Shown here in pieces: positions 1 through 55,506 of a stretch of DNA of 64,000 bases (position 1 is its first letter; every line of letters starts with the position of its first letter). Source of the DNA: Escherichia coli (GTDB lineage: Bacteria > Pseudomonadota > Gammaproteobacteria > Enterobacterales > Enterobacteriaceae); the NCBI RefSeq assembly GCF_016903815.1, contig NZ_CP069973.1; one strand, written 5' to 3'. The position numbers were made by a program, and so were the translations under genes. Below the pieces are notes generated by a model. That model was not told the DNA's origin. It searched no databases and saw only the letters and a program-made list of their open reading frames with translations.

Positions 1-358
1 AATCAGGAAAAATGTCTGAAGGAAAAGCAAAACTTTTGAAACCCTGGTTAGTCGCAATCTCATTTGCAGCAATAGCAACATATCCAATCGGTGCCCGGCT
101 ACTAAAAAGTATAGTGCCTTTGGGCATTAGTTTTGCTGAACAAGAGGAATAGCCTAGTGTAGTTAAATCTCTGGCACCATGTGAGATATATTTCTCTTTA
201 TAACCGCTCAAATCGGCAGGCGTAAGCCAGGCGACTCCCTCACCCGAAGGTGCAAAATTTTCAGCGACTCCCGATTTTGGTGTCCCACCAGAGATGACAT
301 CAGCAATGTCGCCTATTTCAATCTGTTCCCACCCCTCCGGCAATTTCCCAGCACTCAT
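1..358 (-). CDS. hsdS: Type I restriction-modification specificity subunit HsdS, 5' part only (gene continues beyond the window start)
   Basis: Reverse-strand translation from the ATG at 358-356 reads MSAGKLPEGW..., the conserved HsdS N-terminus; start overlaps the hsdM stop (ATGA); no stop before the window edge, so absent from the ORF track. Confidence 0.75.
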   Translation of the reverse strand, partial: MSAGKLPEGWEQIEIGDIADVISGGTPKSGVAENFAPSGEGVAWLTPADLSGYKEKYISHGARDLTTLGYSSCSAKLMPKGTILFSSRAPIGYVAIAANEIATNQGFKSFAFPSDIFPD

Positions 359-1944
359 TCCTTCACCCCACCAAATGCTTCTTCCAGCAACTGGCGCTGC
401 GCATCCGCCTCATCGCTCGCCCCCAGTTCACGCATCAGCGCATCCAGTTCAGACAGCGCCTGTACCAGTTCACCCATCGCTTCTGCCGCTAATACATCCG
501 GCTCCGGCAGGTTGTCGGCATCAATACTGTCTTTATCTTTCAGCCAGGAGATATCCAGCGAATCGGATTTCGCGGTGCGGATCCACTCGCGGCTGAACTT
601 GCGCCAGCGGCTGGTAGCAAGATGCTGGTCGGTGTTTTTGTTCTCTTCGCTGTCGGCAATTTCCGTCTCTTCGGCGTTAAAACTCCATTCACCTTCAGTG
701 CGCGGGCTTAAGCCGTGCGGGTCTTCGCCAAACACGCGCTCAAACGGTTGCAAATGCTCGTCGGTAAACGGCGTGCGTTTACCAAAGCTCGGCATATTGG
801 TCCGCAGGTCGTACACCCACACGTCATCGGTGCAGTTCTTATCCTGATTCGGGTTCGCCACCGTCCCTTTGGTAAAGAACAGCACGTTGGTCTTCACGCC
901 CTGCGCGTAAAAAATACCGGTCGGCAGACGCAGAATAGTGTGCAGATGACACTTATCCATCAGGTCACGACGGATGTCCGTACCTTTGCCGCCTTCAAAC
1001 AGCACGTTATCCGGCACCACCACCGCCGCACGACCGCCGGGGTGCAGCGTTTCGATAATATGCTGCATAAAGCACAACTGTTTGTTGCTGGTCGGGTGAA
1101 CAAAGGTGCGGGTAATGTTGGTGCCTGCGGCGCTGCCAAACGGCGGGTTAGTGGCGACAATATGCGCCTTCGGCAGGTTTTCGCCGTCGCTGCCCAGGGT
1201 GTTGCCCAGACGGATTGCGCCGCCGTGGTCGAGGTTGCCTTCAATATCGTGCAGCAGGCAGTTCATCAGCGCCAGACGACGGGTGCCGGGCACCAGTTCG
1301 AGGCCGATAAACGCGCGGTGGATCTGGAAATCCTGCGTGTCGCCATCAAGGTCGTCCAGATCGTTAGTCTGCGACTTAACGTAGCGGTCGGCTTCAATCA
1401 AAAAGCCCGCCGTACCGGCTGCCGGATCCTGTACCACTTCACGTGGCTGCGGTTTCAGCAGATGAATAATGGTTTTAATCAGCGGACGCGGGGTGAAGTA
1501 CTGGCCCGCGCCAGACTTGGTTTCATTGGCGTTCTTCTGCAGCAGCCCTTCGTACATATCGCCGAAGTCATCGCGCGACTTACCGTGCGCACCGTTGTAC
1601 CAGTCCAGTGAATCCATATTGCTGACCAGTGCGGTTATTTGTTTCGGCTCGGTGATGGTGGTACTAACATTATGAAAAACTGCCTGTACCAGCTTTTTGT
1701 CATCTTCGCCTAAATGCACGAGCATTTTTCGGTAGAACTGCAACTGCTCCTGGCCGATGCGGGATTTCAGGTCATCCCAGCGGTAACCTTCCGGCAGGTA
1801 TTCCGCTTCCTGCCCGGTCTCTTTACACATTTTCAAAAACAGCAGCGAGGCGAGTTCATTGACGTAGTTTTGATAGGAAACGCCGCCATCGCGCAGGTTG
1901 TCGCACAGCTTCCACAGCTTCGCGACCAGATCGTTATTGTTCAT
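355..1944 (-). CDS. hsdM: Type I RM DNA methyltransferase subunit HsdM (529 aa)
   Basis: ORF track 529 aa; N-terminus MNNNDLVAKLWKLCDNLRDGG and NPPFG methyltransferase motif; length as recalled for E. coli HsdM. Confidence 0.93.
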   Translation of the reverse strand: MNNNDLVAKLWKLCDNLRDGGVSYQNYVNELASLLFLKMCKETGQEAEYLPEGYRWDDLKSRIGQEQLQFYRKMLVHLGEDDKKLVQAVFHNVSTTITEPKQITALVSNMDSLDWYNGAHGKSRDDFGDMYEGLLQKNANETKSGAGQYFTPRPLIKTIIHLLKPQPREVVQDPAAGTAGFLIEADRYVKSQTNDLDDLDGDTQDFQIHRAFIGLELVPGTRRLALMNCLLHDIEGNLDHGGAIRLGNTLGSDGENLPKAHIVATNPPFGSAAGTNITRTFVHPTSNKQLCFMQHIIETLHPGGRAAVVVPDNVLFEGGKGTDIRRDLMDKCHLHTILRLPTGIFYAQGVKTNVLFFTKGTVANPNQDKNCTDDVWVYDLRTNMPSFGKRTPFTDEHLQPFERVFGEDPHGLSPRTEGEWSFNAEETEIADSEENKNTDQHLATSRWRKFSREWIRTAKSDSLDISWLKDKDSIDADNLPEPDVLAAEAMGELVQALSELDALMRELGASDEADAQRQLLEEAFGGVKE

Positions 1945-2145
1945 TGTGAGTTCCGTAAATTAAACAACGGCCCGCATTGTTTGGGGCCGCAGAAGAAGAA
2001 ATTGCCGAGGGTAATATACACAAAATCATTCAGGTTGCATCAAGGCGGCAAGTGAGTGAATCCCCGGGAGCGTACAGAAGTACGTGACCGGGGTGAACGA
2101 GCGCAGCCAACGCAGAGGCAGCCTGAAGGATGAAGTGTATACGTG

Positions 2146-5100
2146 TCAGGCCAGCTCGTCCCAGATATAATCGCTGAATTTATCAAGCAGGTTGTCGAGA
2201 TTATCGTCAAAGGTTCTTTGTAGCATCGCCTTACCGCCGCGGCGGTGGAAGTTGCCGGTTTTGAAGACATCGTCGTCGAGCACCACTTTCTCTTTCAGCG
2301 CCTGCGCTAAACGATCGAGCCAGCTTAATTGCTCGCTGCTCCAGTCGTTTTCACCCTTAATGCGCGTCAGCGCGTGATCGACACGTTCCTCAAACGGTTT
2401 CAGCGCATCGCCCACCGCAGCGCGGCGAATATGACCAATCAGCCGGGCGGCGATATCTTCATTGCGCGTCTCTTTCCATGCTTTGCGCAGGGAAGATTCC
2501 TCAAAATGCTGGCGGTCAAACCACTCCTGGAGCTCGACCAGCCCTTTACGGGTGAGATCGCGCGGGCGATTGATCACCGCCTGCAATGCCGGCTGCGCGT
2601 TCGGGGAACGTTGCACCAGCGAGTCAAAGGCTTCGAGGAAATCCTGCGGCGTGTCGTAATCACCGTACAGCGATTTTACACTCACCACTTCATCGTCGAT
2701 ATCGAGGAAGATCGGCGCATCATTCAGGTTGTTGATGTCCGTTTTCAGCTTTTCCAGACGGGCGATAAAGCCAGGCAGTTTGTTAAAGACTTCGGCGCTC
2801 CAGTGCGGCCCTTTTTCCCGCAGGCGCGAGGCGAAGCCGTTAAAGTTCACGCCCGCCGCGTCCTGGCATAGCTCATCCAGACGACGCACCTGTTTATCTA
2901 TCGTTTCGCTGCGGTCACGGTTAAACGTGGCCAGGCCGATGATGCGCTGGAGCTTCGCCACCAATTGTTCATGGCTGTGCTCGGCAAAGCTACGGCCATC
3001 CGCTTCGGTGATTTTATAGGTTTCTGAATCGGTAATTTCATTGACCAGCGTTTGCAGTTCCACCTTCGGACGCACCACCACCGGACGCATGGTGTCGACG
3101 CTCTCCAGCGTGCTGTAGATATCGACACAGTCGAAAATCTTAAAGCTGGTTTTATTCACGTCCGGGCATAAGCGCGTGGCGCGGCCTTTCATCTGCTCGT
3201 ACAGAATACGGCTGCGTACTTTACGCAGGAACACGATATTACAGATCGACGGAATATCGACGCCGGTTGTCAGCAGGTCGACGGTTACCACGATATTGGG
3301 CAGCCGCTCTTTATTGAAGCGGGTGATCATGGTCTGCACTTTGCGCGCGTCTTTATCGGCATCACCGGTGATCTTGATGATCGCGTCGTGCTCCAGTTGC
3401 GGATACTTTTTCTTGAACGCGGTACGCAACTCTTCCACCACCATATCGGCATGGGCATTGGTAACGCAGAAGACCAGCGTTTTTTGCGACCCGGTCGGGT
3501 CAAGGTAGTTGGTGAGCTCGTTACAGACGGCGCGGTTAAACGCCGGGATCACCAGGCCACGGTTAAAGTCGGCGACCTCAAAATCCTGATCGTCTTCCAG
3601 GGTATCGTTGATCACTTCTCCCTGCGGGCTGATGCGCTCTACCTGTTCGCCCTTGGAGAGATAAACCCCCTCCTGGGCGTTGCGGGTGATGATCTGAATC
3701 GGCGGATCCTGGTCGATCAGAAAACCGTCGATAACCGCGGTACGGTAGGTATAACGGTAAACCGGCTCGCCGAAAATCTGCACCGTATGCAGCGCCGGGG
3801 TGGCGGTGAGGGCGATTTTTACCGCATCGAAGTGATCGAGAATGCGACGGTAGGCAGAAACGTAATCCAGCTGGCTGCGGAACTGCAGCTCGCCTTCGGT
3901 CTGCTCTTTATCGAGAATATAGCCGCGATGCGCTTCATCGACGACGATACAGTCGTAACGGGCCACCGGCATCGGTTCATCTGATTGTAGGGTGCGTTTC
4001 ACCAGCGACTGTACGGTGGCAACGTGAATTTTGGTGCTGTCTTCGGGGAATTTATCCGTCAGCCCTTTAATGTCGAAAATGCTGTTGAAGGTGTCGCCGT
4101 TAATACGCGTATCTTCAAACGCCCCCAGTGCCTGCTCGCCAAGAGAACGGCGATCGACAAGGAAGAGAATGCGTTTAAAACGCTGGGACTGGATCAGGCG
4201 GAACATCATGGCAATTGCGGTGCGGGTTTTACCGGTACCGGTCGCCATCGCCAGCAGGATCTCTTGTTGACCCTTGACGATTGCCTTTTCCACCGCGCGG
4301 ACGGCATCTTCCTGGTAATAACGCAGGCCCAGCTCGCTCATGCCCGGGTTATCGGCAAACCACTGATTCTGTTTTTGCGGTTCGCTGCCGAGCATTTCCA
4401 GCAGCTCTTCCGGGCGATGCCACTCGGGTAAGGCTTTCGACATATTGCGGGTATCACGCACGTCGCGATACCAGATGCCACTTTTAGTCTTCATTGCTGC
4501 GCGATATTCGCGCCCGTTGGTGGAGTAGCAGAAGGGGATTTTAAACCGTTGTTGGCCGCTGGTGTCCTGCCAGCTAGTTTCATACTCCGGCACAGCTTCA
4601 TGCACTTCATCCGGTGAGTAATGCTCAAGCAAGGTTTCCCGCAGGAAGCCATTATCGAAGCATTTGCTGTAGCGATACGACTCATTGAGCTTGCCGGGAA
4701 CGTCGATATTTTTACGTTTCGCCTCTACCACCGCGATGGGCTTGAGGCCGACAAACAGCACATAATCCGCAAAGCCCTGATTACCCGTTTCATCTTTCCC
4801 GGTCGGCCATTCGGCAATGGCTTTATTGACGCCGGGTTCCGGGCGTGCGCCTTTGGAGAAGCGCAGGGTTTTGCTATCGGCCTGCCAGCCTGCTTTACGC
4901 AGTTGCGCGTCAATCAGGAAGCGACTCTCTTCTTCGCTAAGGTTGAGTGTGCGCTTGATGGCCTGATCGGTAATTTCTTTGTGGTAAGCCTTACGTTCCT
5001 GTTCGGTCTGTTTGGCCAGCTCCGCGTTCTTCTCGGCGAGCTGTGCTTCCAGCGCCGCAAGGCGAGCCTGGGTTTGCGCTTCTGTTTCCTGCTGTTTGCC

Positions 5101-5658
5101 TTCCAGAATGGCGATATAGCCGTTCAGGGCAACCAGCTTCTGCTGTTGCGCTTCGACTTCTGCCTGAGTCTGCGCTTTTTCTCGCGCCTGCTGTTCAAGC
5201 TGTTGTTTTAGCGTCAGCACTTCCTGGTGATAGAGGTTTTCGCCACGTTCCGGCAACACAAATACCGGCACCGGGAAGTCATAATCTTTGGTGACCAGAC
5301 GGTAGTACCAGACAGCCAGGCGGAACCCGAGTCGCAGGCACATCTGGGCATCGTCGAGATCGTTATGGTATTCGTGCACCGCCTGGTTACCAATGCGGCG
5401 TAATTTGTGGAATACAGAGAGAATGTTGTCATCAACGAAGGCGATTTTGCCGAGTTCGCGCAGGAGATCGTGTTGATTCTCACAAGGGGGGATGTTGAGT
5501 AACAGACCAAGATGTTTCGCTGTAGCTTCGCCAAACATACGCATTTTAATCAGCGTCGTGTTGGGATCATCCGGGTAGTTATTTTCCGCCGCACAGGCGA
5601 TGGCATAAGTGAAGTCGTTGACGCCCTTCAGGAATTCGAAGTTGGATTTATTCATCAT
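2146..5658 (-). CDS. hsdR: Type I RM restriction endonuclease/helicase subunit HsdR (1170 aa)
   Basis: ORF track 1170 aa; Walker A (MATGTGKT) and DEAH-like (VVDEAH) helicase motifs; sits upstream of hsdM-hsdS on the same strand. Confidence 0.93.
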   Translation of the reverse strand: MMNKSNFEFLKGVNDFTYAIACAAENNYPDDPNTTLIKMRMFGEATAKHLGLLLNIPPCENQHDLLRELGKIAFVDDNILSVFHKLRRIGNQAVHEYHNDLDDAQMCLRLGFRLAVWYYRLVTKDYDFPVPVFVLPERGENLYHQEVLTLKQQLEQQAREKAQTQAEVEAQQQKLVALNGYIAILEGKQQETEAQTQARLAALEAQLAEKNAELAKQTEQERKAYHKEITDQAIKRTLNLSEEESRFLIDAQLRKAGWQADSKTLRFSKGARPEPGVNKAIAEWPTGKDETGNQGFADYVLFVGLKPIAVVEAKRKNIDVPGKLNESYRYSKCFDNGFLRETLLEHYSPDEVHEAVPEYETSWQDTSGQQRFKIPFCYSTNGREYRAAMKTKSGIWYRDVRDTRNMSKALPEWHRPEELLEMLGSEPQKQNQWFADNPGMSELGLRYYQEDAVRAVEKAIVKGQQEILLAMATGTGKTRTAIAMMFRLIQSQRFKRILFLVDRRSLGEQALGAFEDTRINGDTFNSIFDIKGLTDKFPEDSTKIHVATVQSLVKRTLQSDEPMPVARYDCIVVDEAHRGYILDKEQTEGELQFRSQLDYVSAYRRILDHFDAVKIALTATPALHTVQIFGEPVYRYTYRTAVIDGFLIDQDPPIQIITRNAQEGVYLSKGEQVERISPQGEVINDTLEDDQDFEVADFNRGLVIPAFNRAVCNELTNYLDPTGSQKTLVFCVTNAHADMVVEELRTAFKKKYPQLEHDAIIKITGDADKDARKVQTMITRFNKERLPNIVVTVDLLTTGVDIPSICNIVFLRKVRSRILYEQMKGRATRLCPDVNKTSFKIFDCVDIYSTLESVDTMRPVVVRPKVELQTLVNEITDSETYKITEADGRSFAEHSHEQLVAKLQRIIGLATFNRDRSETIDKQVRRLDELCQDAAGVNFNGFASRLREKGPHWSAEVFNKLPGFIARLEKLKTDINNLNDAPIFLDIDDEVVSVKSLYGDYDTPQDFLEAFDSLVQRSPNAQPALQAVINRPRDLTRKGLVELQEWFDRQHFEESSLRKAWKETRNEDIAARLIGHIRRAAVGDALKPFEERVDHALTRIKGENDWSSEQLSWLDRLAQALKEKVVLDDDVFKTGNFHRRGGKAMLQRTFDDNLDNLLDKFSDYIWDELA

Positions 5659-5845: not shown

Positions 5846-6760
5846 ATGACGGTTCCTACCTATGACAAATTTATTGAACCTGTTCTGCGTTATCTGGCAA
5901 CAAAACCGGAAGGTGCAGCCGCGCGTGATGTTCATGAGGCTGCCGCGGATGCATTAGGACTGGATGACAGCCAGCGATCGAAAGTCATTACCAGCGGACA
6001 ACTTGTTTATAAAAATCGTGCAGGCTGGGCACATGACCGTTTAAAACGTGCCGGGTTGTCGCAAAGTTTGTCGCGTGGCAAATGGTGCCTGACTCCTGCG
6101 GGTTTTGACTGGGTTGCGTCTCATCCCCAGCCAATGACGGAGCAGGAGATGAACCATCTGGCCTTCAATTTTGTGAATGTCAAACTTAAGTCACGGCCGG
6201 ATGCCGTCGATTTAGATCCGAAAGCCGACTCTCCCGATCATGAAGAACTTGCAAAGAGCAGCCCGGACGATCGGTTAGATCAGGCGCTAAAAGAGCTTCG
6301 TGATGCGGTGGCTGATGAGGTTCTGGAAAACTTATTGCAGGTTTCTCCTTCGCGCTTTGAAGTCATTGTTCTGGATGTTTTGCATCGCCTGGGGTATGGC
6401 GGCCACCGTGATGATTTGCAGCGTGTTGGCGGTACTGGAGATGGTGGCATCGATGGTGTGATATCGCTTGATAAACTTGGCCTGGAGAAAGTTTATGTTC
6501 AGGCAAAACGTTGGCAGAATACTGTAGGCAGGCCAGAATTACAGGCATTTTACGGCGCACTGGCTGGGCAAAAAGCGAAACGTGGGGTGTTTATTACCAC
6601 TTCTGGATTTACTTCTCAGGCGCGTGACTTTGCCCAATCCGTCGAGGGTATGGTGTTGGTTGATGGGGAACGCCTGGTGCACTTAATGATCGAAAACGAA
6701 GTAGGGGTTTCTTCACGTTTGTTGAAGGTGCCGAAACTGGATATGGATTATTTTGAGTGA
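5846..6760 (+). CDS. mrr: Mrr type IV methylation-dependent restriction endonuclease (304 aa)
   Basis: ORF track 304 aa beginning MTVPTYDKFIEPVLRYL; divergent from hsdR as in the E. coli immigration-control region. Confidence 0.88.
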   Translation: MTVPTYDKFIEPVLRYLATKPEGAAARDVHEAAADALGLDDSQRSKVITSGQLVYKNRAGWAHDRLKRAGLSQSLSRGKWCLTPAGFDWVASHPQPMTEQEMNHLAFNFVNVKLKSRPDAVDLDPKADSPDHEELAKSSPDDRLDQALKELRDAVADEVLENLLQVSPSRFEVIVLDVLHRLGYGGHRDDLQRVGGTGDGGIDGVISLDKLGLEKVYVQAKRWQNTVGRPELQAFYGALAGQKAKRGVFITTSGFTSQARDFAQSVEGMVLVDGERLVHLMIENEVGVSSRLLKVPKLDMDYFE

Positions 6761-6805: not shown

Positions 6806-7762
6806 TTACTTCCTCAACCCCGCAAACGCCGCCCGAATCTCATCCTCCGGCAGCTGAATCCCGATAAACACCATCGTGCTATGCGGTTTTTCATCGCCCC
6901 ACGGCCTGTCCCAGTCGGCGCTGTAGAGGCGCTGGACGCCCTGGAACAGCAGGCGGTTAGGTTCGCCGTCAATCCACAGCATCCCTTTGTAACGCAGCAG
7001 TTTATCTGCCGATTCCAGCAGCAGGTTTTCCATCACGCGGGAAACTTCGCTGATATCTACCGGGTAATCCAGTTCCACCACAATCGACGAAATATCGTTT
7101 TGTTTGTCCGCGATAAAGTGAAAACGTGGCTTGGTGCTGACGACGTTTTCTTCCAGCATAAAACCGTTGGTGTTGAACAACAGGCCCAGGTCGATGTCGC
7201 CGTGGGTGACGGTGTAGACCGGTGCACGGGCGTTGATGCGCGCCAGGCGTTCACGCAGTTTTTCTGCTTCGCCTGCGACGTCGGTTTTAGTCAGCAGAAT
7301 ACGGTCGGCGTAGCCAACCTGGGACTGGGCGATGGTGAACTGGTTCATCTGCTCATCGGCATGTACCGCATCCACCAGCGCAATCACGCCATCCAGCAGG
7401 TAACGCTGGCATAAAATCTCATGGGAGAAAAAGGTCTGAATAATCGGGCCGGGATCGGCCATGCCGGTGCATTCAATGACCAGACGGTCGAACTGAATAT
7501 TGCCCTTGTCGAGATTATCCAGCAGGTCGAGTAGGGCGTCTTCCAGCTCGTTGGAGCGCGAACAGCAGATGCAGCCGTTGGTCAGCGTTTTGATCTGCGT
7601 GGCGCGGTCGCCAATCAGTTGATCATCAACGGAGACTTCGCCGAATTCGTTTTCAATCACGGCAATCTTGTAGCCGTGTTGTTCGTTAAGAATATGGCGC
7701 AGCAGGGTGGTTTTTCCTGCGCCTAAAAAACCGGTGAGTAGGGTAACTGCAATCGGGTTCAT
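6806..7762 (-). CDS. yjiA: CobW/HypB-family P-loop GTPase YjiA (about 318 aa)
   Basis: ORF track 346 aa; the internal Met giving MNPIAVTLLTGFLGAGKTTLL (Walker A) matches the recalled YjiA length; upstream extension is probably not translated. Confidence 0.8.
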   Translation of the reverse strand: MNPIAVTLLTGFLGAGKTTLLRHILNEQHGYKIAVIENEFGEVSVDDQLIGDRATQIKTLTNGCICCSRSNELEDALLDLLDNLDKGNIQFDRLVIECTGMADPGPIIQTFFSHEILCQRYLLDGVIALVDAVHADEQMNQFTIAQSQVGYADRILLTKTDVAGEAEKLRERLARINARAPVYTVTHGDIDLGLLFNTNGFMLEENVVSTKPRFHFIADKQNDISSIVVELDYPVDISEVSRVMENLLLESADKLLRYKGMLWIDGEPNRLLFQGVQRLYSADWDRPWGDEKPHSTMVFIGIQLPEDEIRAAFAGLRK

Positions 7763-7772
7763 GCTCTCTCCA

Positions 7773-7976
7773 TTAACAACAGCGCATACCGCCTTTACCA
7801 TCGCCGCCGTAGCGCGCGTTCTGGCGTTCGCGGAAGAATTCTTCATAGCTCATGTACGGCTTGTCGGGATGGTTGGTCTTCATATGCTCGACGTAGTTGT
7901 CGTAGTCTGGAATGCCAATCAACATCTTCGCCGCCTGGCCGAGATATTTTTTTGCCTGTCCTAAGTTACCAAACAT
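7773..7976 (-). CDS. yjiX: YjiX, DUF466 small protein, partner of the BtsT transporter (67 aa)
   Basis: ORF track 67 aa [31 protein letters not shown]...; immediately downstream of btsT, the same arrangement as cstA-ybdD. Confidence 0.8.
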
Positions 7977-8019
7977 TTTGCCTTCCAGATATGCGTAAAG
8001 CCCGGAAGGTCCGGGCTGG

Positions 8020-8093
<74 letters not shown>

Positions 8094-10244
8094 TTAGTGG
8101 TGCGAAGAGATCTTCACGCCGCCTTCCGGGATTGGAACGTACGGTGTTTCTTTGTCAGTACGTTTGTCGCTGTTACGCACCTTCAGCCAGGTTTTGAAAC
8201 CGTAGAAGATGATGCTGTACACCACAATCAGGAACAGAATACTCAGGCCTGCGTTGGTGTAGTTGTTCACAACGATGTGGTTCATGTTGGCAATCTGCTG
8301 CGCCGTCAGGTCAGTACCGTTAGCAATCTTCTCTTTGTACTGGCTCGCCATGTAGAAGAAGCCTTCCATCTGCGGGTTGGTGCTGAACAGTTTCAGGCCC
8401 AGCGCCCAGGTGGTGCAGATAAGCAGCCATACTGCCGGGATAACGGTAACCCAGATGTATTGGGTGCGCTTCATCTTAATCAGTACAACGGTGCCCAGTA
8501 CCAGCGCCACGGCTGCCAGCATCTGGTTGGAGATACCGAACAGCGGCCACAGGCTCTTAACGCCGCCCAGCGGATCGACCACGCCCTGATACAGCAGGTA
8601 GCCCCACAGACCCACACAGCCCGCAGTACCGATGATACCGGCAACCAGAGAGTCGGTTTTTTTCAGGAACGGGATGAAGTTACCCAGCAGGTCTTGCAGC
8701 ATAAAGCGGCCAGAACGGGTACCCGCATCCAGCGCGGTCAGGATGAACAGGGCTTCGAACAGAATACCGAAGTGATACCAGAAGCCCATGTCAGCCATCG
8801 GCAGCACTTTGTGGAACACGTGAGCGATACCTACCGCCAGCGTTGGCGCACCACCTGCACGGTTCAGGACAGAAGGCTCACCAATGTCTTTCGCGGTTTG
8901 CAGGATCTGCTCTGGCGAAATCACGAAGCCCCAGGAGCTGACGGTCGCTGCCGCGTGTGCGGTAACGTCTTTCAGCTGTGCCATGATGATCGGCGCGTTC
9001 TCGCCACCCATTTCATGCAGGTTAGGCATGGTGATGCCGAGGCCAGCAGGCGGGGTGTTCATCGCGAAGTAAAGACCCGGTTCGATGATGGACGCAGCAA
9101 CCAGCGCCATAATCGCCACGAAGGACTCCATCAGCATTGCGCCGTAGCCGATGAAACGCGCGTCGGTTTCATTAGCCAGCAGTTTCGGCGTCGTACCGGA
9201 AGAGATCAGCGCGTGGAAGCCAGATACCGCACCACAGGCGATGGTGATGAACAGGAACGGGAACAGAGCGCCTTTCCACAGCGGGCCAGTACCGTCAATG
9301 TACTGGGTCATGGCAGGCATTTTCAGTTCCGGGTTCAGCACCACGATACCCAGCGCCAGGCCGACGATAACGCCGATTTTCAGGAAGGTTGCCAGATAGT
9401 CGCGCGGTGCGAGGATCAGCCACACTGGCAGCAGTGCGGAAACAAACGCATAGCCAATCAGCGCGAAAGTAATGGTGGTATCTTTAAAGGTCAGTGCCGG
9501 ACCCCAGTACGGATCGTGAGCAATCACGCCACCGAAGTAGATAGAGGCAACCAGCAGCACGATACCAATGACAGAGACTTCACCCACACGCCCCGGACGA
9601 ATAAAGCGCATGTAGATACCCATAAACAGCGCAATCGGTACGGTTGAGCAAACGGTGAAGACCCCCCACGGACTTTCGGCCAGGGCTTTAACCACAATCA
9701 GTGCCAGAACGGCGAGGATGATGATCATGATTAAGAAACAGCCAAACAGCGCGATAGTCCCCGGTACTGGTCCCATCTCTTCTTTGATCATCTCACCAAG
9801 AGATGCGCCGTTACGGCGAGAGGAGATAAACAGCACCATAAAGTCCTGAACCGCACCGGCCAGCACGACCCCCGCCAGCAGCCACAGCGTGCCAGGCAGG
9901 TAGCCCATCTGCGCGGCGAGAACCGGACCCACCAGCGGACCAGCACCGGCGATAGCGGCGAAGTGGTGACCAAACAACACGTAACGGTTGGTCGGAACGT
10001 AGTTCAGACCGTCGTTGTTAATAACCGCAGGCGTCGCGCGCGTGGGGTCGAGTTTCATCACCTTCTGGGCGATGTACAGACTGTAGTAGCGATACGCCAC
10101 CAGATACACCGACACAGAGGCGACCACGATCCACAGGGCGCTGACGTGCTCCCCCCGACGTAATGCAACTACCGCGAGGCAGAATGCACCGATGATTCCG
10201 AGAATCACCCAGGGTATGTGCTTGAATATCTTTTTAGTATCCAT
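8094..10244 (-). CDS. btsT: CstA-family pyruvate/H+ symporter BtsT (YjiY), about 716 aa
   Basis: ORF track 721 aa; start set to the internal Met (MDTKKIFKHIPWVILG) to match the recalled length; multi-pass membrane protein. Confidence 0.85.
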   Translation of the reverse strand: MDTKKIFKHIPWVILGIIGAFCLAVVALRRGEHVSALWIVVASVSVYLVAYRYYSLYIAQKVMKLDPTRATPAVINNDGLNYVPTNRYVLFGHHFAAIAGAGPLVGPVLAAQMGYLPGTLWLLAGVVLAGAVQDFMVLFISSRRNGASLGEMIKEEMGPVPGTIALFGCFLIMIIILAVLALIVVKALAESPWGVFTVCSTVPIALFMGIYMRFIRPGRVGEVSVIGIVLLVASIYFGGVIAHDPYWGPALTFKDTTITFALIGYAFVSALLPVWLILAPRDYLATFLKIGVIVGLALGIVVLNPELKMPAMTQYIDGTGPLWKGALFPFLFITIACGAVSGFHALISSGTTPKLLANETDARFIGYGAMLMESFVAIMALVAASIIEPGLYFAMNTPPAGLGITMPNLHEMGGENAPIIMAQLKDVTAHAAATVSSWGFVISPEQILQTAKDIGEPSVLNRAGGAPTLAVGIAHVFHKVLPMADMGFWYHFGILFEALFILTALDAGTRSGRFMLQDLLGNFIPFLKKTDSLVAGIIGTAGCVGLWGYLLYQGVVDPLGGVKSLWPLFGISNQMLAAVALVLGTVVLIKMKRTQYIWVTVIPAVWLLICTTWALGLKLFSTNPQMEGFFYMASQYKEKIANGTDLTAQQIANMNHIVVNNYTNAGLSILFLIVVYSIIFYGFKTWLKVRNSDKRTDKETPYVPIPEGGVKISSHH

Positions 10245-54115: not shown

Positions 54116-54646
54116 GTGCAGTTTATGAAACATTCATTTGAAGTAAAAATTGCCGCTGTAAATCATTACCTGGCCGGTCATGCAGGCATCATTTCTACGG
54201 CAAAACTCTTTCAACTTTCTCACACCAGCCTCTCACACTGGATTAATCTTTTTCTTCTTCACGGTCCTCAGGCACTGGATTGCAGACACAAGCGTAGCTA
54301 TTCTCCTGAAGATAAACTTTGCGTGGTTCTTTATGCTCTCGGGCATTCTGAGTCTCTACCCCGGGTAGCTGCCCGGTTTAACATTCCCAGCCACAACACG
54401 GTTAAAAACTGGATAAAAGGCTACCGCAAATCTGGTAATGAGGCCTTTATCAGGCGCAGGAAGGAGAAAAGCATGACCCGTTCTGATGATACCCATGAAA
54501 ACGAGGCAAACATGACGCCGGAAGAGATGAAGAATGAGCTGCGTTATCTTCGCGCAGAAAATGCATATCTGAAAGCCATGCAGGAGCATCTCCTGGAAAA
54601 AAAGCGCCAGGAGCTGGAGAAAAAACGAAAGTCATCCGGAGCCTGA
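54116..54646 (+). CDS. IS3-family transposase OrfA (HTH/leucine-zipper part), 176 aa
   Basis: ORF track 176 aa MQFMKHSFEVKIAAVNHYLAGH...; ends just after an A-rich slippery run near 54621. Confidence 0.8.
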   Translation: MQFMKHSFEVKIAAVNHYLAGHAGIISTAKLFQLSHTSLSHWINLFLLHGPQALDCRHKRSYSPEDKLCVVLYALGHSESLPRVAARFNIPSHNTVKNWIKGYRKSGNEAFIRRRKEKSMTRSDDTHENEANMTPEEMKNELRYLRAENAYLKAMQEHLLEKKRQELEKKRKSSGA

Positions 54647-54750
54647 GGTGCGGACACTGCCAGTCTGACCTGTTAAAGGCTGCAGGGCTGGCCAGAAGCA
54701 CGCTGTACTACCAGCTGTCACTGCAGAAGGCTAAGGACAAGTATGCTGAT

Positions 54751-55506
<756 letters not shown>

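Follow-up and report, generated by a model that had tools for sequence, protein, structure and literature searches.

The hsdS allele at the edge of the stretch of Escherichia coli DNA analysed here (the window, 64,000 nucleotides in all) is a real feature and a common allele that has already been characterised by experiment, and it holds nothing new. Window 1-358, read on the reverse strand, can be assigned to the start of a type IA hsdS, the chromosomal specificity subunit gene, and very probably represents the EcoUTI89I allele, an isoschizomer of Eco646I with the target CCA(N7)CTTC. The 358 nt match hsdS of E. coli UTI89 at every position (100%), and the 119-residue peptide that they encode is an exact prefix of the 455-codon UTI89 HsdS (WP_001272440.1). 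The preliminary description of this DNA had proposed an allelic variant of the S subunit that differs in DNA specificity, and that much stands, as the N-terminal target-recognition domain (TRD1) is unrelated to that of EcoKI and the target in UTI89 is CCA(N7)CTTC. The novelty that it implied does not survive the complete match to UTI89; identity to another fully characterised allele, which the same description had named as the outcome that would speak against its proposal, is what was found.

The hsdS fragment and its locus

The reverse complement of window 1-358 starts ATG AGT GCT GGG AAA TTG CCG GAG GGG TGG GAA CAG ATT GAA and is translated through 119 codons without a stop, reading MSAGKLPEGWEQIEIGDIADVISGGTPKSG... 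(the 119-residue translation has also been given as MSAGKLPEGWEQIEIGDIADVISGGTPKSGVAENFAPSGEGVAWLTPADLSGYKEKYISHGARDL...). The open reading frame runs past the window edge and is therefore absent from the program-made list of reading frames; the remainder of the gene, 3' of codon 119, lies outside the window. The fragment comprises the conserved 10-residue N-terminus and most of TRD1. It had been described as the 5' third of hsdS, which is correct as to the gene and slightly high as to the share, 119 of 455 codons being about a quarter. The start codon, at 358-356, shares bases with the TGA that ends hsdM, in the form ATGA. The genes of the locus within the window are as follows.

1 to 358, reverse strand: hsdS, 5' part, codons 1-119 of 455 (from the translation and the DNA identity to UTI89 hsdS)
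355 to 1944, reverse strand: hsdM, type IA methyltransferase subunit (from the open reading frame, its translation and identity to EcoKI HsdM)
2146 to 5658, reverse strand: hsdR, type IA restriction/translocase subunit (from the open reading frame, its translation and identity to UTI89 and EcoKI HsdR)
5846 to 6760, forward strand: mrr, adjoining restriction gene (from the open reading frame, with mrr annotated at the matching position in UTI89 and strain 7/2)

The earlier view that hsdM and hsdR are K-12-like was confirmed, with 525 of 529 HsdM residues (99.2%) and 1159 of 1170 HsdR residues (99.1%) identical to those of MG1655. In comparison with UTI89, HsdR shows no differences and HsdM a single substitution, T358I, which is shared by strain 7/2, whose HsdM is the same as that of the window. 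This substitution rules out UTI89 itself as the source of the DNA. With mrr adjoining hsdR, and serB some 46 kb farther on in the window, the hsdR-hsdM-hsdS / mrr locus is the chromosomal immigration control region, marked by mrr. The host is a phylogroup-B2-like E. coli.

The differences between this immigration control region and that of K-12 go beyond hsdS. Where K-12 has mcrBC, downstream of hsdS and symE, a restriction gene of the GmrSD family is present in both UTI89 and strain 7/2, and UTI89 additionally has a DUF262 pseudogene (7597-10078 of the UTI89 locus, compared with 413-2838 of the K-12 locus; just outside the window). Elsewhere in the window, a copy of the IS3-family IS1397 transposase lies at about 54125-55473, flanked by the gene of a LysR-family regulator and by ettA; this copy is known from the annotation of the identical genome alone (strain 7/2 record, 5084472-5085820). 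Ahead of it are genes without K-12 names, encoding an aldo/keto reductase, an SDR oxidoreductase and an SRPBCC protein.

Distribution and integrity of the allele

Of 5426 complete E. coli genomes searched by megablast with these 358 bases, 242 have the TRD1 sequence, chromosomal in every case and at an identity of at least 99% in 234. UTI89, APEC O1, IHE3034, NU14 and UM146 are among the carriers. The 242 carriers can be divided according to what accompanies TRD1.

Full UTI89 allele at an identity of at least 99%: 223 of 242
65COLEC-type, same TRD1 with another C-terminal domain (TRD2): 11 of 242
NCTC9112-type, same TRD1 with a third TRD2: 7 of 242, six of these split by an insertion into two places
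Partial: 1 of 242

Thus in about 8% of the carriers TRD1 has a different TRD2 partner or the gene is interrupted. Within the window, identity to the characterised EcoUTI89I/Eco646I HsdS holds for residues 1-119, and TRD2 lies beyond the edge. The hsdS portion outside the window is nevertheless almost certainly that of the standard UTI89 allele, because all 64,000 nt of the window match strain 7/2 (NZ_CP023820.1, 5030348-5094347) with zero mismatches and the HsdS of that strain is WP_001272440.1, with its 455 codons intact. Strain 7/2 was isolated from human faeces in Sweden; the first 20 kb of the window are also 100% identical in numerous further isolates of human and animal origin and from the AR bank.

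Two other readings place the decisive sequence beyond the edge of the window. The first is that the gene is a recombinant, with the same TRD1 joined to another C-terminal TRD, as in 65COLEC and NCTC9112, and with a specificity of CCA(Nx) followed by some other half-site. Such alleles do exist, as the 65COLEC-type (11 genomes) and NCTC9112-type (7 genomes) genes share TRD1 at 98.5-100% and have unrelated TRD2s, and the position of TRD2 outside the window leaves room for one here. However, the whole window is identical to 7/2, a carrier of the standard allele, and the standard allele is that of the great majority of TRD1 carriers. Furthermore, the HsdM and HsdR protein accessions differ in both 65COLEC and NCTC9112, and what follows hsdS differs as well, with mcrB there in the case of 65COLEC and a DEAD/DEAH helicase gene in that of NCTC9112, as opposed to the GmrSD gene of UTI89 and 7/2. 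We therefore regard the recombinant structure as highly improbable; that the unseen part would carry a different C-terminal TRD and encode an uncharacterised specificity of the CCA(Nx) type is, likewise, to be given very little weight.

The second is that an IS insertion or a truncation beyond the window edge has inactivated hsdS, leaving the system without specificity in the source strain. Interruptions of this kind have precedents: strain N31 has IS1 within this UTI89-type allele, TRD1 is partial or split in MS20654, and six NCTC9112-type alleles are split into two places. Against this, strain 7/2, identical over the window, has an intact hsdS, and the part within the window is free of stops and frameshifts. 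An inactive gene is likewise highly improbable. Least probable of all is a type IA specificity that is new and uncharacterised, as might be supposed from a TRD1 just ~18-20% identical to that of EcoKI; the complete match to the UTI89 allele, which has been characterised by experiment and has the specificity of Eco646I, refutes it.

Specificity and proposed working of the system

The UTI89 allele goes by the name S.EcoUTI89I (REBASE S.EcoUTORF5051P). What follows combines two kinds of evidence: for UTI89, the literature shows the motif, restriction by the system and the setting of specificity by S alone, and the sequence identity and domain layout were computed here. UTI89 has only one type I system, hsdSMR, which was named EcoUTI89I by Mehershahi and Chen (PMC8287963). 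By SMRT sequencing, m6A was found at 97.7-99.3% of 5'-CCA(N7)CTTC-3' sites, deletion of hsdSMR abolished the methylation of this motif only, and motif-bearing plasmids were restricted in a manner dependent on methylation (PMC8287963). When hsdS, and nothing else, was exchanged between UTI89 and MG1655, the specificity switched in both directions, and the subunits are interchangeable between the EcoKI and EcoUTI89I systems (PMC8287963). REBASE places the UTI89 system with 104 E. coli systems for which Eco646I is the prototype (PMC8287963). The recognition sequence of Eco646I is CCANNNNNNNCTTC, according to Ryu and Rowsell (PMC2490747; motif also in PMC3874165), and in the clinical E. coli that they typed the most frequent type I specificities were Eco646I and Eco377I (PMC2490747). 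Methylation and restriction at CCA(N7)CTTC have likewise been shown for clinical strains of the Eco646I type (PMC2490747). The checks that had been proposed for this fragment (recovery of the full gene, comparison with REBASE and a motif from SMRT data) are in effect already published for the UTI89 allele (PMC8287963). A literature search for the literal motif strings gave as its only match a methylome table of Bacteroides dorei, which is unrelated to the UTI89 allele.

Relative to EcoKI, the fragment behaves as had been described, with the start MSAGKLPEGW followed by divergence: residues 1-10 are identical at 10 of 10 positions, and residues 11-119 at 20% in a global alignment. The EcoKI sequence that had been given for this comparison (VIAPVSTV...) was correct, the HsdS of the MG1655 record starting MSAGKLPEGWVIAPVSTV.... 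The comparison by region was made on the complete allele as it stands in UTI89 and 7/2, of which the window covers the leader and TRD1 to residue 119.

Residues 1-10, leader: 100% identity to EcoKI
Residues 11-157, TRD1: 18% identity
Residues 158-205, central region: 92% identity
Residues 206-363, TRD2: 26% identity
Residues 364-455, C-terminal region: 97% identity

The identity to EcoKI is strictly modular. Over its full length, UTI89 HsdS is 45.5% identical to EcoKI HsdS; this value and our HsdM and HsdR values agree with the published figures for UTI89 and MG1655, of 45.4% for HsdS and 99% for HsdM/HsdR (PMC8287963). The full-length protein contains two Pfam Methylase_S domains (PF01420), at 7-187 (E 7.9e-24) and 217-394, and the arrangement matches the classical type IA HsdS layout as reviewed by Loenen et al. 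(PMC3874165). The similarity of HsdM and HsdR, the layout of HsdS and the chromosomal position all agree with type IA, and the system is a member of this (EcoKI) family.

In this family, the M2S1 complex acts as the methyltransferase on both half-sites, and R2M2S1 translocates, and cleaves when sites are unmethylated (PMC3874165). The HsdS encoded here would likewise consist of two TRDs, separated and trailed by helical regions conserved in type IA. The methyltransferase, composed of a single HsdS with two HsdM, would place m6A on both strands of 5'-CCA(N7)CTTC-3', and the addition of two HsdR would give an ATP-driven translocating endonuclease that cuts DNA with unmethylated sites. As HsdM and HsdR share ~99% of their residues with the EcoKI subunits, the two TRDs alone would account for the shift from AAC(N6)GTGC to CCA(N7)CTTC. 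The N-terminal TRD in the window most likely reads the 5' CCA half-site, because in the type IA hybrids StySQ and StySJ, natural and engineered, it is the N-terminal TRD that carries the 5' trinucleotide half-site (PMC3874165). By inference, the C-terminal TRD would read CTTC (GAAG on the complementary strand). The central conserved region of HsdS equals that of EcoKI in length, so that the spacer of N7 as opposed to N6 would have to be set by the TRDs themselves.

The window contains 14 CCA(N7)CTTC sites, compared with an expected 7.2 +/- 2.4, and so there is no avoidance of the motif within these 64 kb. Two overlapping sites, at 368-384 on the forward strand, fall in the last hsdM codons, ten bases upstream of the hsdS start. 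They were considered as an autoregulatory feature and rejected, as the same sites occupy the same place in K-12 hsdM; their presence in K-12, which has an enzyme of another specificity, means that they are conserved coding sequence for the HsdM C-terminus.

Relatives of TRD1 and comparison with known systems

TRD1 by itself has ~1000 relatives at E <= 1e-10 across many bacterial phyla in a database search, with no informative names among them, and it is an ordinary member of the widely exchanged pool of Methylase_S TRDs. Three types of allele in E. coli genomes are natural TRD-shuffled type IA alleles.

65COLEC (NZ_CP070914.1), 2501-3913 of the retrieved locus: hsdS with the TRD1 of the window and an unrelated TRD2
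NCTC9112 (NZ_LR134079.1), 2501-3892 of the retrieved locus: hsdS with the TRD1 of the window and an unrelated TRD2
SJC33 (NZ_CP080255.1), 2075-3388 of the retrieved locus: hsdS with the UTI89 TRD2 and a different TRD1

The SJC33-type HsdS is without the MSAGKLPEGW leader. The motifs of these shuffled alleles would directly assign half-sites, and could give spacer rules, in type IA.

A sensitive blastn search of E. coli genomes for a TRD like that of EcoprrI (CCA N7 RTGC, type IC), which could have backed a CCA half-site for TRD1, found no such locus. The single diverged relative of TRD1 obtained by sensitive blastn of these genomes is a type IB S subunit, WP_000110087.1, whose N-terminal TRD is 48% identical to TRD1 (E 4e-47). 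This protein belongs to another family (type IB, the EcoAI family) and has an EcoAI/FtnUII-type HsdR. When TRDs from separate families recognise one and the same half-site, their identity is at this level of 48%, and WP_000110087.1 may thus read the same half-site as TRD1, or a similar one, in another family. Its gene is present in E. coli GB089 (2491-4242 of the retrieved locus) and in 141 other genomes; in strain AR_0128 it is truncated by IS1, beside a resistance-gene insertion.

For the experimenter, the allele indicates that CCA(N7)CTTC should be avoided or pre-methylated for efficient transformation of this lineage, and it illustrates in textbook fashion how TRD replacement changes type I specificity on a constant M/R background. 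The published work on EcoUTI89I found its methylation to have no effect on gene expression, growth phenotypes or virulence (PMC8287963), and beyond correct annotation the allele matters little.

Among known systems, a structural template for the fold of TRD1 exists in the solved S subunit S.MjaXI of Methanocaldococcus jannaschii (PDB 1YF2). TRD1 can be aligned in full with each of the two TRDs of this protein (full-sequence E 7.7e-47), and its best match is the C-terminal TRD (98 bits, i-Evalue 4.6e-27). S.MjaXI is archaeal and its recognition sequence was unknown as of a 2013 review, and for this reason it is silent on the half-site of TRD1. With EcoKI, the system of the window has in common the locus, the gene order, the ATGA overlap of hsdM and hsdS, HsdM and HsdR at ~99% identity, and the leader, central and C-terminal regions of HsdS. 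It is unlike EcoKI in both TRDs, which are unrelated (18% and 26%), and in the target, AAC(N6)GTGC for EcoKI and CCA(N7)CTTC for EcoUTI89I. From EcoUTI89I, finally, it has no hsdS difference detectable in the window: the hsdS DNA is 100% the same there, HsdR is the same and HsdM is one residue off (T358I).
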